IMG/VR virus record: IMGVR_UViG_3300028833_000111
Span: 30,801 to 94,800 of that record
DNA length: 64,000 nt
Reading direction: 5' to 3' (one strand)
Source of the DNA: a virus
Lineage: Duplodnaviria; Caudoviricetes
The translations under genes were made by a program, and so were the position numbers. The first letter of the stretch is position 1, and each line of letters starts with the position of its first letter. Shown in pieces: positions 25,501 to 62,709 of the stretch. Under the pieces are notes generated by a model that saw nothing but the letters and a program-made list of their open reading frames with translations, searched no databases and was not told the origin of the DNA.

Positions 25501-25512
25501 TATTGTTTATAT

Positions 25513-59654: not shown

Positions 59655-60410
59655 ATGGTCAACATAGACAGAATCATAACAGAAGAAATAGAAAAAGCTA
59701 TAAACAAGAATTATGTTTTAGAATATCTTGATAAAATGACTTCTGATGCAATGCGTAGTTTAGGTACTCAAGATAAACCATCAGATTTAGCTAATAGAAC
59801 TTATCGTTATTTAAGAAAAGATACTTGGTATCCTAAAGCTAGTGAGACTGGTCTTCAGAAAAATGATTGGTTGGTACACATCACCGACTTAGCCACTGGT
59901 TATAAAATAATGAAGGAAGGTTTCAAGAGTTCTATTAGAGACTTGAATTTCAGAGCCACTCAAGATTTAGATAATACTGAAGAAATGACGAAAAATGGAC
60001 TTTGTTTTGCTCATGAATTAACTAGGGATGATGATTGGATAGATTATGTTGAAGATGATATGTGCGCCATTGTTTTCCAAGCAAATGGATTTAATGCTTT
60101 TTCTTATTTTGGTGAGATATATGAGGTTATTTTTAATGCCAATTCTGCTCATAATCTTTTAATGATTCTTCCTATGAATAAAAAAGAAGAAGAGAAGTAT
60201 TTGAGGTATAATAATATTCCGATGGAGTCTTTTAAGGGTGTTAAGATTGTGGATAAAAACGGCAAGGTTTTAAGGTATTGCAATGCTACTGATTATTTTG
60301 GCGTTAAGAATGTATATAAAGTTAAAAGTGCTGATAATCCATCAAGTGCAGAAGAATGGCTTAATAATGCGTCTACACAATATAGAAAACATTTTGGTGG
60401 GGTCAAATAG
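59655..60410 (+). CDS. Putative internal head protein, possible ART-like domain
   Basis: IDRIITEEI N-terminus; WLVHITD...IMKEGF...EIYEVIF. Confidence 0.45.
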   Translation: MVNIDRIITEEIEKAINKNYVLEYLDKMTSDAMRSLGTQDKPSDLANRTYRYLRKDTWYPKASETGLQKNDWLVHITDLATGYKIMKEGFKSSIRDLNFRATQDLDNTEEMTKNGLCFAHELTRDDDWIDYVEDDMCAIVFQANGFNAFSYFGEIYEVIFNANSAHNLLMILPMNKKEEEKYLRYNNIPMESFKGVKIVDKNGKVLRYCNATDYFGVKNVYKVKSADNPSSAEEWLNNASTQYRKHFGGVK

Positions 60411-60457: not shown

Positions 60458-60586
60458 ATGGCATGTGGATGTAAAAACAAAGCAGGAAATGCAAGTACAA
60501 ACGTGGTAAAGCCAGCACCAACACAGGAGGCTAAACCACAAAAGACTTCAAATGGAGCAAGAATAATCAAAAGAGAAATTAGATAG
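60458..60586 (+). CDS. 42-aa basic microprotein (absent from ORF track)
   Basis: MACGCKNKAG...IIKREIR*. Confidence 0.6.
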   Translation: MACGCKNKAGNASTNVVKPAPTQEAKPQKTSNGARIIKREIR

Positions 60587-60588
60587 TT

Positions 60589-60942
60589 ATGATTGATGCA
60601 CCAAAAACAACATTGTTAAATAATATAGATGACTTAGATTTAACCTTTATAGAGGGCGAGAACGAATTGGAATTTGATATTGATGATTATTCGTTCACTG
60701 TTACTTATTCTCTAGAAGAAGATGATTTCTTTACAGAGGATGATGAGGAAATTAAAGGAGGCAAGAAGCTAAAGGTTTTGTCAATAAACGCTTATGATAA
60801 CATTGAGGATGAAGATATTGACGTGAACGTTGACGAAGATATGCAGAAATTATTCTCAGATTATTATAAAAATACGTTAAATGATGAAGAATATGAGCCA
60901 TTAGATGTTAATTTTGGTGAATTTTCTGATTTTATGGACTAA
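60589..60942 (+). CDS. Highly acidic protein
   Basis: About one third Asp/Glu. Confidence 0.6.
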   Translation: MIDAPKTTLLNNIDDLDLTFIEGENELEFDIDDYSFTVTYSLEEDDFFTEDDEEIKGGKKLKVLSINAYDNIEDEDIDVNVDEDMQKLFSDYYKNTLNDEEYEPLDVNFGEFSDFMD

Positions 60943-60946
60943 AAAT

Positions 60947-60977
60947 TTTGTTTTTTGAATTATTTTTTGTACATTTG
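60947..60977 (+). promoter_or_regulatory. Bacteroidota-type promoter for the tRNA-Leu cluster
   Basis: TTTG-N19-TACATTTG. Confidence 0.75.
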
Positions 60978-61035
60978 CAAATGAAATTGGTGAGGTAGAG
61001 CGTTACCTAAGAGACAACAGCCTCACCAAAACTAT

Positions 61036-61117
61036 GGCTCTATGGCGTAATTGGTAGCCGCTCCCGTCTCAAAAGCGGGTGTCGAGAGACGTGTTGGTTC
61101 GAGTCCGACTAGAGCTA
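61036..61117 (+). tRNA. tRNA-Leu(CAA)
   Basis: Acceptor GGCTCTA/TAGAGCT; anticodon arm CCCGT-CTCAAAA-GCGGG; long V arm; T loop TTCGAGT; A73. Confidence 0.92.
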
Positions 61118-61151
61118 CAACCAACCTTGGCAAAAGGTAAAATATAAAACA

Positions 61152-61287
61152 AGGAAGCTTACAGCAAAGTTAAGTTTACACGATGGAAATGCTGGATTAA
61201 TTTCCGTATGGGTTCGAATCCCTTAGAGACTTTAAACGGTCGCTTGGTGAAATGGTAGACACGGCGGTATAATTAAAATTCTTTCCT
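61152..61287 (+). ncRNA. Circularly permuted tRNA-Leu-like RNA (Y RNA/YrlA-like)
   Basis: Order is V arm, T arm (GGGTTCGAATCCC), closed acceptor hairpin AGAGACT-TTAAAC-GGTCGCT, D arm (GTGAAATGGTAGACAC); ends pair as AGGAAG/TTTCCT; no anticodon loop. Confidence 0.7.
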
Positions 61288-61295
61288 AAATAAAT

Positions 61296-61379
61296 GCGCT
61301 TATGGAGTAACTGGTAGCCTCGCAACACTTAGGATGTTGTGCTGAAATATGCGTGTCAGTTCGAGTCTGACTAAGCGCA
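61296..61379 (+). tRNA. tRNA-Leu(TAG)
   Basis: Acceptor GCGCTTA/TAAGCGC; anticodon arm CAACA-CTTAGGA-TGTTG; long V arm; T loop TTCGAGT. Confidence 0.92.
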
Positions 61380-61384
61380 CAAAT

Positions 61385-61528
61385 ATGATTTACAAAGCAG
61401 TAATTAGATGGACTTGGCATCGTATTGGCAATAGTAAAGAAAAATTTGAAAACGTATATGACGCCATAAAAAGGTATAAAGAACTTAAAAAGAACAAACA
61501 AGTTCGTAATTTATCAATAGTTTATTAA
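61385..61528 (+). CDS. 47-aa basic microprotein (absent from ORF track)
   Basis: MIYKAVIRWTW...NLSIVY*, fills the spacer exactly. Confidence 0.45.
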   Translation: MIYKAVIRWTWHRIGNSKEKFENVYDAIKRYKELKKNKQVRNLSIVY

Positions 61529-61551
61529 ATTTAAAAATATTTATAAATAAG

Positions 61552-61590
61552 ATGAAGAATATAGTACGACAACAGCAACAACAGATTTAA
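61552..61590 (+). CDS. Gln-rich leader peptide MKNIVRQQQQQI
   Basis: ATG AAG AAT ATA GTA CGA CAA CAG CAA CAA CAG ATT TAA; upstream of attenuator hairpins and the tRNA-Gln genes. Confidence 0.85.
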   Translation: MKNIVRQQQQQI

Positions 61591-61593
61591 GTC

Positions 61594-61692
61594 GTATCAA
61601 CCATATGGGAACGGTTGATACAGATATTGTATTAGCCTTTCTCAACATATGTAAAAACGTTCCCATTAGTAGAAATACTGATGGGTTTTTTT
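61594..61692 (+). promoter_or_regulatory. Transcription attenuator (protector, antiterminator, terminator)
   Basis: GTATCAACC/GGTTGATAC (61594-602/61613-621); ATGGGAACG/CGTTCCCAT (61605-613/61658-666); CCCATTAGTA-GAAA-TACTGATGGG-T7 (61662-692). Confidence 0.85.
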
Positions 61693-61710
61693 GTAAGTAT
61701 CTGATTTAGA

Positions 61711-61782
61711 TGGAGTATGGTATAACGGTTATTACAAGAGATTTTGGTCCTCTTAATCCCAGTCCGACTCTGGGTGCTCCAA
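61711..61782 (+). tRNA. tRNA-Gln(TTG)
   Basis: Acceptor TGGAGTA/TGCTCCA (U1:A72); anticodon arm AGAGA-TTTTGGT-CCTCT; T arm CCCAG-TCCGACT-CTGGG. Confidence 0.88.
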
Positions 61783-61787
61783 CAAAT

Positions 61788-62024
61788 ATGAGTAAAGGGA
61801 AAAAATTCAATACTCCAAAGAAGTTTTGGAGAAAGATGTTGAAGAAAACAAAAAGACCTTGGTATGCTAGGCAATCATGGAGAAAGACAACTGCCCATGT
61901 ATTAGGAAGAAACCATAGTAAATTTAAATGGTATTTTAGGCAGAAAAAATGGTATAATGACAATTCTATGAAAAGAATGTCAATGAGGTTTCCAATGTCC
62001 CATGAAATATGGGGCTGGGATTAA
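61788..62024 (+). CDS. 78-aa Lys/Arg/Trp-rich protein between the two tRNA-Gln genes
   Basis: ATG at 61788; MSKGKKFNTPKKFWRK...EIWGWD*, fills the spacer exactly. Confidence 0.6.
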   Translation: MSKGKKFNTPKKFWRKMLKKTKRPWYARQSWRKTTAHVLGRNHSKFKWYFRQKKWYNDNSMKRMSMRFPMSHEIWGWD

Positions 62025-62026
62025 AT

Positions 62027-62114
62027 TGGGAGTTGGCCGAGTGGTTTAAGGCGTTGGATTCTGGTCCCAATGTAGATTAATAGTCTACCGCAGGTTCGAA
62101 TCCTGCACTCCTAA
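62027..62114 (+). tRNA. tRNA with Gln anticodon CTG on a class II (Ser-like) long-variable-arm body
   Basis: Acceptor TGGGAGT/ACTCCTA; D arm GCCGAGTGGTTTAAGGC; anticodon arm TTGGA-TTCTGGT-CCCAA; 19-nt V region; T arm GCAGG-TTCGAAT-CCTGC. Confidence 0.88.
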
Positions 62115-62136
62115 CAATGTATTTTTAGCATAATTT

Positions 62137-62170
62137 AACGTTAGATTCTTTTGAATTTAACGTTTTTTTT
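62137..62170 (+). terminator. Terminator ending the tRNA-Gln unit
   Basis: AACGTTAGATTC-TTTT-GAATTTAACGTT followed by a T-run. Confidence 0.7.
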
Positions 62171-62171
62171 G

Positions 62172-62179
62172 TATATTTG
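62172..62179 (+). promoter_or_regulatory. Bacteroidota -7 promoter element
   Basis: TATATTTG with TTTG about 18 nt upstream. Confidence 0.6.
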
Positions 62180-62237
62180 TATTAAGAAGTATTTTTCAAT
62201 TTTATTGCATATTTATTCAAAATAACAATTTAAATTG

Positions 62238-62435
62238 ATGAATATGGAATATTTTGTAGACACAGAAAAAATTAGCCTTGACTATTCTGAGGAAAGGATT
62301 ATGAATGACTTGCCTGCATATAGACTTACTATATACGATAAATTTGGGCATTTTGATGCTGACGTTTATTTGTCTGATGAACAAATAAATGATTTGATAG
62401 ATGGCCTAGATAAAATAAAGCAAAAACAAAATTAG
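62238..62435 (+). CDS. Hypothetical protein
   Basis: 65-aa ORF. Confidence 0.55.
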   Translation: MNMEYFVDTEKISLDYSEERIMNDLPAYRLTIYDKFGHFDADVYLSDEQINDLIDGLDKIKQKQN

Positions 62436-62436
62436 T

Positions 62437-62709
62437 ATGGGAGCATTATTAAGTTTAATTTTACATGCAATCTTATGGTTAATTGTAATTTATTTGCTAT
62501 TTAATGTTGTTAGAAAAGTAGTAGAAGAAAAAAATCCATTAATTGATTCAATTATTGGAATGGCAAAAGTTTTAATCGAAAAAATAAAAAAATGTTATGG
62601 GATTGTTAGACAACGTATTTGTAAAAAAAGCAATGAAATCAATGATGACTCCGGAACAGTTTACAACGGTCCAGAGTTTTATGACAGCAGTTCAGAGTGG
62701 GGAGATTGA
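62437..62709 (+). CDS. Small membrane protein
   Basis: Hydrophobic N-terminus; 113-nt overlap with the next ORF. Confidence 0.5.
   Translation: MGALLSLILHAILWLIVIYLLFNVVRKVVEEKNPLIDSIIGMAKVLIEKIKKCYGIVRQRICKKSNEINDDSGTVYNGPEFYDSSSEWGD

Follow-up and report, generated by a model that had tools for sequence, protein, structure and literature searches.

Why does a phage carry a short open reading frame (ORF) with five consecutive glutamine (Gln) codons, followed by an intrinsic terminator, directly in front of its tRNA-Gln genes? The question is raised by a 64,000-nucleotide stretch of viral DNA (the window), which is the 3′ 64 kb of the 94.8-kb IMG/VR contig IMGVR_UViG_3300028833_000111, whose completeness is given by CheckV as ~30%, and the element in question is a 147-nucleotide (nt) leader immediately upstream of the gene for tRNA-Gln(UUG). 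Judged by the sequence comparisons described below, this element is a real, conserved and strongly structured regulatory leader. It is likely to act as a Gln-codon attenuator of the phage tRNA-Gln genes, whichever the polarity of the switch. The more specific reading that we favour, with a probability of roughly 0.55, is that of a ribosome-mediated attenuator gating read-through from the tRNA-Leu genes into the tRNA-Gln genes, in which a stalled ribosome leads to read-through. Within this reading, we infer that the ORF is translated, that the antiterminator pairs, what a second hairpin (H2) does and which polarity applies.

A preliminary description of this DNA, made from its letters alone, had given coordinates and sequences for the ORF, the hairpin H1, the antiterminator, the terminator, the helix P0 and the tRNAs, and all of them are present in the window as described. 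With H2 added, the leader and the two genes that it may gate comprise the following parts, with stem lengths in base pairs (bp).

61552 to 61590, plus strand: leader mini-ORF of 12 codons, encoding MKNIVRQQQQQI and a stop; its Gln codons, CAA CAG CAA CAA CAG, occupy 61570 to 61584
61565 to 61596, plus strand: helix P0, TACGAC (61565 to 61570) paired with GTCGTA (61591 to 61596), with the Gln codons enclosed in its loop
61591 to 61625, plus strand: hairpin H1, with the core GTATCAACC (61594 to 61602) paired with GGTTGATAC (61613 to 61621), from the RNAalifold consensus
61605 to 61612, plus strand: ATGGGAAC, which serves as the loop of H1 and as the 5′ strand both of the H2 outer stem and, putatively, of the antiterminator; the same in 24 of 26 sequences
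61606 to 61644, plus strand: hairpin H2, a new element, TGGGAA plus GGTTGATACA paired with TGTATTAGCC plus TTCTCA, in competition with H1 for 61613 to 61621
61659 to 61666, plus strand: GTTCCCAT, the putative antiterminator 3′ strand, complementary to ATGGGAAC; its last five bases are the foot of the terminator 5′ arm
61662 to 61692, plus strand: intrinsic terminator from the terminator scan, CCCATTAGTA-GAAA-TACTGATGGG (61662 to 61685), a 10-bp stem with one G·U pair, followed by T7 (61686 to 61692)
61711 to 61783, plus strand: tRNA-Gln(UUG), the first gated gene, found by ARAGORN and Rfam
62027 to 62115, plus strand: an 89-nt class-II tRNA with anticodon CUG, the second gated gene, found by ARAGORN and Rfam

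Conservation of the leader

Relatives of the locus were found through a neighbouring protein and through DNA patterns, giving 26 distinct leader sequences, which were aligned in two sets of 14 (A4) and 26 (A5). A 117-amino-acid (aa) acidic protein encoded just upstream of the tRNA operon has 87 homologues in public assemblies, and contigs were fetched for eleven of them. This sample is unbiased as to the leader, and the unit was present in every contig that reached far enough and carried the operon, while L035 and L036 were without the operon altogether. An exact-pattern scan of IMG/VR returned two relatives, L006 and L007, and a pattern scan of JGI metagenomes 19 further loci. In the contigs that extend far enough and have the operon, the order is tRNA-Leu(CAA), a second tRNA-Leu (UAG; AAG in L030), spacer, tRNA-Gln(UUG) and tRNA-Gln(CUG). 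A DNA search of GenBank phages gave distant tRNA-Leu matches and no relative, and the exact loop-plus-terminator pattern found three unrelated chance matches in 185,579 prokaryote species genomes, from which the element is absent. A tRNA-based pattern for IMG/VR was discarded, having matched ordinary phage tRNA-Ser genes.

What is kept across the 26 sequences is the mini-ORF, Gln run included, together with H1, the terminator and an H1 loop complementary to the terminator 5′ arm. Around these elements, divergence extends to the flanks, to the spacer and even to the tRNA genes. The preliminary description had made its proposal depend on such conservation of the Gln run and the helices, and this conservation is borne out.

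The structure is strong as well as conserved. The 147-nt leader of the window folds at -39.8 kcal/mol, as compared with -21.8 ± 3.3 kcal/mol for 200 shuffled versions (z = -5.45), and the RNAalifold consensus fold consists of H1 and the terminator. In the 26 sequences, 99% of the cells of these two helices are paired (100% for H1), against 20–47% in controls with the partner slid out of register. Six pairs, three in each helix, show compensatory double changes, a number that none of 500 shuffles reached. The upper stem of the terminator covaries (AGTA/TACT, AACA/TGTT, GGCA/TGTT and others) while its foot, CCCAT/ATGGG, is invariant. P0 forms part of the minimum free energy (MFE) structure of the free leader and is paired in 95.5% of cells against 4–50% with the partner slid; it changes solely from G-C to G·U, and its covariation is not significant. 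H1 can be extended to 12 bp, and its 5′ strand then comprises exactly the 12 nt after the stop codon (stop+1 to stop+12).

A different kind of constraint acts on the antiterminator. In the window, ATGGGAACG (61605 to 61613) is complementary to CGTTCCCAT (61658 to 61666), and H1 and the antiterminator overlap by only 1 nt. GTTCCCATT is invariant in all 26 sequences, and ATGGGAAC is replaced in two relatives, L020 and L057, by AAGGGAAC. The bases that follow the terminator GGG, opposite GTT, are ATT in 11 sequences, AAT in 8, AAC in 4 and TTT in 3. The GTT of GTTCCCAT is thus often unpaired in the terminator yet never changed, and the matching AAC of the loop is likewise never changed. Since a strand that must fit two partners cannot drift, the invariance of ATGGGAAC and GTTCCCATT fits a shared-strand switch, an argument from invariance and not from covariation. 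The covariation that the preliminary description had anticipated in its helices was accordingly found in H1 and the terminator, in the six pairs mentioned, and not in the antiterminator; the extension that it had added to the latter (GTTGA/TCAAC) is not conserved in the aligned relatives.

The leader mini-ORF

The mini-ORF of the window reads ATG AAG AAT ATA GTA CGA CAA CAG CAA CAA CAG ATT TAA. In the relatives, 19 distinct ORF sequences of 11–12 codons and one stop-loss variant (L020) were found. Every variant has an ATG start, CGA before the run (ACA in L020) and 4–6 Gln codons, and in all but L020 the run is followed by one variable codon (I, S, N, K, V or F) and then by TAA (TAG once). Codons 2–5 vary freely (K/N/M, N/K/R/M, I/N/Y and V/T/I), which is expected if translation and the Gln run alone matter. 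Differences within the run are all CAA/CAG swaps at third codon positions, except for one change from CAA to CCA in L021, and its length differs by whole codons only. CAA and CAG are both present in each of the 20 ORFs, and they are the codons read by the two downstream tRNAs. In the window at large, CAA is 3.6 times commoner than CAG, and CGA, which the preliminary description had called rare, is the rarest arginine codon.

Further signs of translation come from the region around the start codon, which contains one additional feature.

61536 to 61545, plus strand: AATATTTATA, a gene-start-associated motif (promoter or initiation region), 6 nt upstream of the leader ATG

The (A)ATATTTATA motif stands 6–19 nt upstream of the leader ATG and precedes the leader in most relatives; at least six other genes of the window also have it, in intergenic DNA, 14–44 nt before their starts. 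Its sites in the window are at 25510, 27776, 44856, 46480, 59636 and 61536. The motif may be a phage promoter or translation-initiation element distinct from the TTTG/TAnnTTTG sites. In L007 and L058, an inserted 50-codon ORF lies upstream, and the leader ATG overlaps its TGA as ATGA, which is the usual arrangement for translational coupling; in L007 the motif stands before the inserted ORF instead, and in L058 it is absent before the leader. Translation of the leader ORF is suggested indirectly, yet consistently, by the preserved ATG, frame and stop, by the Gln run, by the motif and by the ATGA overlap. A second ORF, starting at the ATG of the H1 loop (MGTVDTD...), was considered and set aside: it is anywhere from 4 to 36 codons long, does not stay in one frame with respect to the terminator, and has lost its ATG in L020 and L057.

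The same sequence might also be read as RNA, without translation. A factor acting in trans, such as a phage or host RNA-binding protein or, in the manner of a T-box, the anticodon loop of tRNA-Gln, would bind the CAA/CAG run in the P0 loop or the GGGAA-bearing loop of H1 and so shift the balance between H1, H2 and the antiterminator. It is true that a conserved helix encloses the Gln codons in its loop and that the loop of H1 does not vary; ACAACAG, moreover, is common to all leaders and recurs, in about half of the relatives, in the operon 5′ hairpin as part of its loop, which counts against an attenuator as well as for such a sensor. A sensor of this kind needs none of the kept ATG, frame, stop position, gene-start motif and ATGA overlap, and the run varies at third codon positions only. 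At E ≤ 1 no match to an Rfam family was obtained, T-box and glutamine riboswitches included, and the loop reads UGGG, whereas a T-box-like contact with the A73-CCA end would need UGGU. We regard this explanation as very unlikely.

Besides the leader ORF, neither the window nor the tRNA regions of G001 and G002, which are complete relatives, contain a mini-ORF with a Gln run. Other mini-ORFs with codon runs have the Leu, Ile, Phe, Lys or Ser runs typical of AT-rich DNA and lie on the wrong strand or within genes. In the main arrays of the two complete relatives, with 32–34 tRNAs each, no other tRNA is preceded by a leader with a run of cognate codons. The arrangement that had been suggested for related jumbo phages, a leader ORF and terminator before a cognate tRNA, was therefore found for Gln only, and on this survey the element is not general among the tRNAs of these phages.

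A second hairpin and the polarity of the proposed switch

In the preliminary description, three mutually exclusive helices followed the ORF: H1 as protector, the antiterminator and the terminator. H1, the terminator and the complementarity of loop and arm are indeed kept, but the scheme is incomplete, as it misses a conserved hairpin. In this hairpin, H2, the inner stem is made by the H1 3′ arm (GGTTGATACA) and by TGTATTAGCC, which repeats the H1 5′ arm in degenerate form. The outer stem, made by TGGGAA and TTCTCA, takes up the GGGAA of the antiterminator strand and buries ATGGGAA. In the 14-sequence alignment A4, 84.7% of H2 cells are paired against 34–46% in slid controls. The third strand varies A/G opposite U only, with pairing kept, and covariation is not significant. 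In the L016 clade, the shared strand has changed from GGTTGA to GGTTAG and both partners have changed to match, so that the H2 architecture is kept with other letters, including a 9-bp outer stem CUAUGGGAA/UUUUCAUAG. The MFE structure of the free leader in the main clade contains P0, H2 and the terminator, not H1 and the terminator, and with the H1 5′ arm masked, H2 is the MFE structure in 13 of 14 sequences, the exception being L020, in which H2 is weak and differently arranged.

With H2 included, the leader presents a chain of exclusions: P0 excludes the extended H1, H1 excludes H2, the H2 outer stem excludes the antiterminator, and the antiterminator excludes the terminator. In the main clade, when the H1 5′ arm is free, the states with H1 and with H2 differ in energy by ~0–5 kcal/mol. 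The refolding barrier between them is 12–15 kcal/mol, a heuristic upper bound obtained for the findpath direct path in a nested nearest-neighbour model.

According to the favoured reading, transcripts starting at the operon promoter, and perhaps also at the ATATTTATA motif, would carry the 12-codon ORF with its five Gln codons. A ribosome with the stop codon in its A site covers ~12–13 nt downstream and would thus cover the whole H1 5′ arm. With this arm masked, H2 would form, ATGGGAA would be buried, the terminator would form and the RNA would end before tRNA-Gln. A ribosome held at Gln codons 1–4 would instead break P0 and leave the H1 arm free; H1 would form and display ATGGGAAC in its loop, which would capture GTTCCCAT, probably as an H-type pseudoknot stacked on H1, and permit read-through. 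The position of the ribosome at the moment when the H1 3′ arm emerges would therefore pick H1 or H2, and the near-equal energies and high barrier suggest that the choice would be held for about a second, until the polymerase reaches the terminator within the next 40–70 nt. In H1, ATGGGAAC is unpaired and flush against the 3′ arm, with 2–3 nt on its 5′ side; this placement has the geometry of an H-type pseudoknot, and the H1 loop could reach the terminator arm in this way. Moreover, because H2 buries GGGAA, it makes sense only as the termination state, which favours H1 as the permissive one. Slow decoding of Gln codons would then yield more phage tRNA-Gln, a negative feedback of classical polarity. 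H1 is probably not a simple protector, as H2 shares strands with it.

The opposite polarity, which retains the protector role of H1, is unlikely in our view. Here H1 would block the antiterminator, and it would be opened only by a ribosome that has come to the last Gln codons or to the stop, allowing a nested ATGGGAAC/GTTCCCAT helix to form beside the H2 inner stem. Smooth translation or a late stall would give read-through, an early stall would give termination, and tRNA-Gln production would be coupled to active translation. This scheme needs no pseudoknot, the H1 5′ arm is exactly what a ribosome at the stop would cover, and once GTTCCCAT has emerged, the MFE structure combines the H2 inner stem and the antiterminator. 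In L016, L017 and L020, furthermore, the nested model gives an antiterminator probability of 0–0.28 for the free RNA, 0–0.65 with the ribosome at the second Gln codon and 0.95–1.0 with the ribosome at the last Gln codon or the stop. To this extent the nested model gives the original scheme in these sequences, where H1 is much more stable than H2, and the folding with a simulated ribosome footprint, proposed as its test, separates the ribosome positions there. For the main clade, the model fails to tell the ribosome states apart. The conserved H2 outer stem would pair GGGAA in what is supposed to be the permissive state and so oppose read-through, a ribosome at the stop should leave long before the polymerase has covered the 70–95 nt to GTTCCCAT, and the positive feedback on tRNA-Gln supply would have no obvious use. 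In both polarity schemes, a stall on at least some of the Gln codons would give read-through; they differ on early stalls and on untranslated RNA.

Several points weigh against the favoured reading. The Gln codons lie 9–24 nt upstream of H1, unlike those of the trp and his attenuators, in which the control codons are inside the first helix, so that the effect of a stalled ribosome on the phage leader would be indirect. The antiterminator is without covariation, because both of its strands are invariant. L021 has a proline codon inside the Gln run, and L020 has lost the stop codon of the ORF and has a weaker terminator. In nested equilibrium folding, the window passes from H1 to H2, to a transient antiterminator and to the terminator at every ribosome position. 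For transcripts ending before the terminator 3′ arm, the antiterminator probability is high in most main-clade sequences regardless of the ribosome, where it arises next to the H2 inner stem. In the L016 clade, H1 is ~7 kcal/mol stabler than H2, and the nested model fits the scheme of the preliminary description better. The favoured polarity also requires a pseudoknot, which nested folding cannot represent, and with the ribosome footprint masked, neither equilibrium folding nor length-wise MFE folding settled the polarity.

Some of these points would also be compatible with a leader that does not sense Gln at all: a constitutive and partly leaky terminator, or an RNA-processing structure, that sets the tRNA-Leu/tRNA-Gln ratio or shapes the precursor. 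The mini-ORF might then be kept, for example, to load ribosomes that protect or unfold the RNA, the Gln run being a by-product of a CAA/CAG repeat. The terminator wins thermodynamically in every full-length fold, the equilibrium models of the main clade depend little on the position of the ribosome, small ORFs are scattered throughout the operon, and the leader tolerates the proline codon and the lost stop in one relative each. Such an explanation would leave unaccounted for the upkeep of 4–6 Gln codons of both kinds in 20 ORF variants before the only tRNA-Gln genes of the phage, an invariant ATGGGAAC complementary to the terminator foot amid covarying stems, the maintenance of a second hairpin that competes for the same strands, and the lack of such a leader before any other tRNA in the two complete genomes. 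We consider it improbable.

The putatively gated tRNA-Gln genes

After the leader, tRNA-Gln(UUG) is always the next gene. It begins 2–18 nt past the U-tract (18 nt in the window, 2–8 nt in most relatives), except in L006 and L037, where it lies ~50 nt past it, behind the 5′ stump of a displaced tRNA, which was another tRNA-Gln. A gap of 2–8 nt leaves no room for a promoter; an independent promoter between the terminator and the tRNA, named at the outset as an outcome that would speak against the proposal, is thus not in evidence. G001 and G002 have no tRNA-Gln besides the pair behind the leader, and most of their 32–34 tRNAs each are in one large array elsewhere in the genome.

The tRNA genes themselves are strikingly variable. 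Serine-type class-II bodies of 88–91 nt carry the CUG anticodon in the window, L006 and L007 and the UUG anticodon in L032; other relatives have a tRNA-Gln(CUG) of 72–75 nt at the CUG position. The 5′ half of the CUG tRNA of the window matches phage tRNA-Ser genes, and its anticodon and acceptor stems have compensatory changes between relatives. tRNA-Gln(UUG) is found on at least six unrelated scaffolds, and the bodies and anticodon loops of the tRNA-Gln genes differ strongly between close relatives. Mean pairwise identity is 0.78 for the leader (0.86 for its first 72 nt), against 0.67 for the UUG and 0.69 for the CUG tRNA, and by this comparison turnover is much faster in the tRNA genes than in the leader before them.

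One possible meaning of the element, which we put forward tentatively and consider doubtful, is that of a phage homeostat for a single tRNA species: a loss of usable Gln-tRNA, through starvation or through a host nuclease or modifier directed at tRNA-Gln, would be sensed as the stalling of a ribosome on a test gene with five Gln codons and would cause replacement tRNA-Gln to be transcribed. A rapid exchange of tRNA bodies, including serine-type class-II scaffolds with Gln anticodons, is expected if the tRNAs escape a tRNA-targeting defence. The observed exchange of scaffolds fits an arms race around tRNA-Gln; it is no proof of one.

Relation to known systems

Attenuation by leader peptides is a textbook mechanism, described in bacteria for amino-acid biosynthesis and for a few synthetase genes. 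Of the features by which such attenuators are recognized, the phage leader has a short translatable leader ORF, tandem cognate codons, and an intrinsic terminator with no intervening promoter. The classical his attenuator of Salmonella and E. coli (hisL) has a leader ORF with a run of codons for a single amino acid, more than three alternative hairpins and a terminator, and the position of the ribosome decides between them. The phage element resembles it in having a short leader ORF with a codon run, more than three alternative hairpins that end in an intrinsic terminator, and a decision presumably placed by the ribosome. Unlike hisL, it uses Gln and would gate tRNA genes rather than biosynthetic enzymes; its control codons are upstream of the first competing hairpin, in the P0 loop, and its antiterminator strand is in a hairpin loop. 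There is no sequence relation, and the scan of 60500–62500 with cmscan matched none of the Rfam His, Trp, Thr, Leu and Phe leader families at E ≤ 1. As in trpL, with its 1:2, 2:3 and 3:4 pairings, the pairings are exclusive, the antiterminator shares bases with the terminator 5′ arm, and terminator and U-tract precede the first gated gene. The two differ in that a ribosome at the stop masks segment 2 in trp and the H1 5′ arm in the phage leader, and the latter adds H2 and perhaps a pseudoknot, with a polarity that we infer.

Translation components are known targets of such leaders. The synthetase genes pheST of E. coli are under leader-peptide attenuation. His leader peptides precede hisS paralogues in bacilli (PMC2965389). 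In these systems and in the phage, a leader peptide would control a translation component for the same amino acid; in the phage, the target would be the tRNA itself and not the protein gene of a synthetase, and the product would feed straight back on the signal. A candidate precedent, a Phe leader before the tRNA-Phe genes of E. coli, was dropped, as pheV has only a promoter directly upstream. Like a T-box, the phage leader would monitor one tRNA species and make a terminator/antiterminator choice. A T-box binds uncharged tRNA and needs no translation, whereas the phage leader has a conserved translatable ORF; the T-box family gave no Rfam match, and the sole strand bearing UGG reads UGGG against A73 of tRNA-Gln. 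Glutamine riboswitches (the glnA RNA/Downstream-peptide motif) likewise gave no match at E ≤ 1.

Full-text literature searches brought up neither a leader peptide for Gln nor a leader-peptide attenuator in front of tRNA genes, nor any element of this kind in a phage. The class of mechanism is thus known, while the amino acid, the target and the carrier are new. The passages of PMC10264068 on phage tRNA sets propose that these counter tRNA-targeting host defences; those passages concern which tRNAs phages carry and serve as background rather than as evidence, and the phage described here would add a cis-acting sensor that switches them on. The element touches on the question of whether phage tRNAs are constitutive, in the service of codon usage, or made on demand, as a counter-defence, and it is easily mutated. 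If the favoured reading is true, attenuation logic would operate in a virus, for glutamine, with tRNA genes as its output and a very short feedback loop. Translation initiation in Bacteroidetes works without Shine-Dalgarno pairing, and if the assignment to a Bacteroidetes host holds, ribosome-mediated attenuation would occur in a lineage that initiates in this way. The element is widespread in a family of ~400-kb phages, and relatives of the neighbouring protein are present in many public metagenome assemblies. A 150-nt module that reports the decoding speed of one codon family would also be a potential part for synthetic biology.

The surrounding tRNA operon

The leader is embedded in an operon in which a promoter-like site and a 5′ hairpin are followed by tRNA-Leu(CAA), a structured spacer, tRNA-Leu(UAG), a 47-codon ORF, the leader, tRNA-Gln(UUG), a 78-codon ORF, the CUG tRNA and a terminator. 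Its further features are these.

60947 to 60977, plus strand: promoter-like site of the tRNA operon, TTTG-N19-TACATTTG, with -33 and -7 boxes, found by pattern match
61036 to 61118, plus strand: tRNA-Leu(CAA), found by ARAGORN and Rfam
61296 to 61380, plus strand: tRNA-Leu(UAG), found by ARAGORN and Rfam
61788 to 62024, plus strand: 78-aa basic ORF between the two tRNA-Gln genes, outside the conserved core
62137 to 62172, plus strand: terminator closing the operon, from the terminator scan, overlapped by the next promoter-like site (62150 to 62179)

The site at 60947–60977 has the form TTTG-N19-TAnnTTTG, which we take to be a Bacteroidetes-type promoter on the strength of the consensus of Bacteroides promoters. 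The pattern has two matches on the plus strand of the 64 kb, which flank the tRNA operon, and the TAnnTTTG (-7) box upstream of tRNA-Leu(CAA) is kept in all relatives. The terminator scan predicted none between the tRNA-Leu genes and the leader. At E ≤ 1, cmscan of 60500–62500 against Rfam returned the four tRNAs and three weak unrelated matches only.

The 5′ hairpin (60989–61027) directly follows the operon promoter, and its stem covaries (GGTGAGG/CCTCACC versus ATGGGGC/GCCCCAT). About half of the relatives have, in its loop, 24 conserved nt that end in GACAACAG, similar to the beginning of the Gln run. The spacer between the tRNA-Leu genes (61119–61295) is conserved and structured: a T-arm and 3′ acceptor strand precede a 5′ acceptor strand and Leu-type D-arm, the layout of a permuted tRNA-like structure, and there is a long-range GGAAAG/CTTTCC pairing too. 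The acceptor has compensatory changes in L006, and the spacer has no Rfam match. The spacers between the four tRNAs (61385–61528 and 61788–62024 in the window, and those of L016–L038) are insertion hot spots. Their contents differ among relatives and include unrelated small ORFs (47, 50 and 56–82 aa), HNH endonucleases and a gene with an LPD23 domain; the small spacer ORFs tested have no Pfam family. The 78-aa ORF, which likewise has no Pfam family, is present in the window and L006 and absent from L007, and other relatives have different inserts at its position.

The phage

The window has a GC content of ~30% and includes phage tail and baseplate genes and nucleases. The two near-complete relatives G001 and G002 measure 401 and 317 kb, which makes the phage of the window, by relationship, a jumbo phage, in a family whose genomes that carry the element are of ~400 kb. 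The genes of the window give no sign of stop-codon recoding and no in-frame use of TAG, which terminates 7 of 46 long ORFs. A 251-aa gene at 59655–60410, for which no family match was found, was tried as a handle for relatives and rejected: true relatives are without it, and its loci in L002 and L003 lack the operon. It is not in the closest relatives, L006 and L007, and has counterparts at 52–86% identity on the otherwise unrelated contigs L002 and L003; this distribution suggests a mobile gene. In the complete relatives, a tRNA with a CUA anticodon, an amber suppressor, is part of the main tRNA array, at ~15070 of L040 (G001) and ~8347 of L043 (G002).

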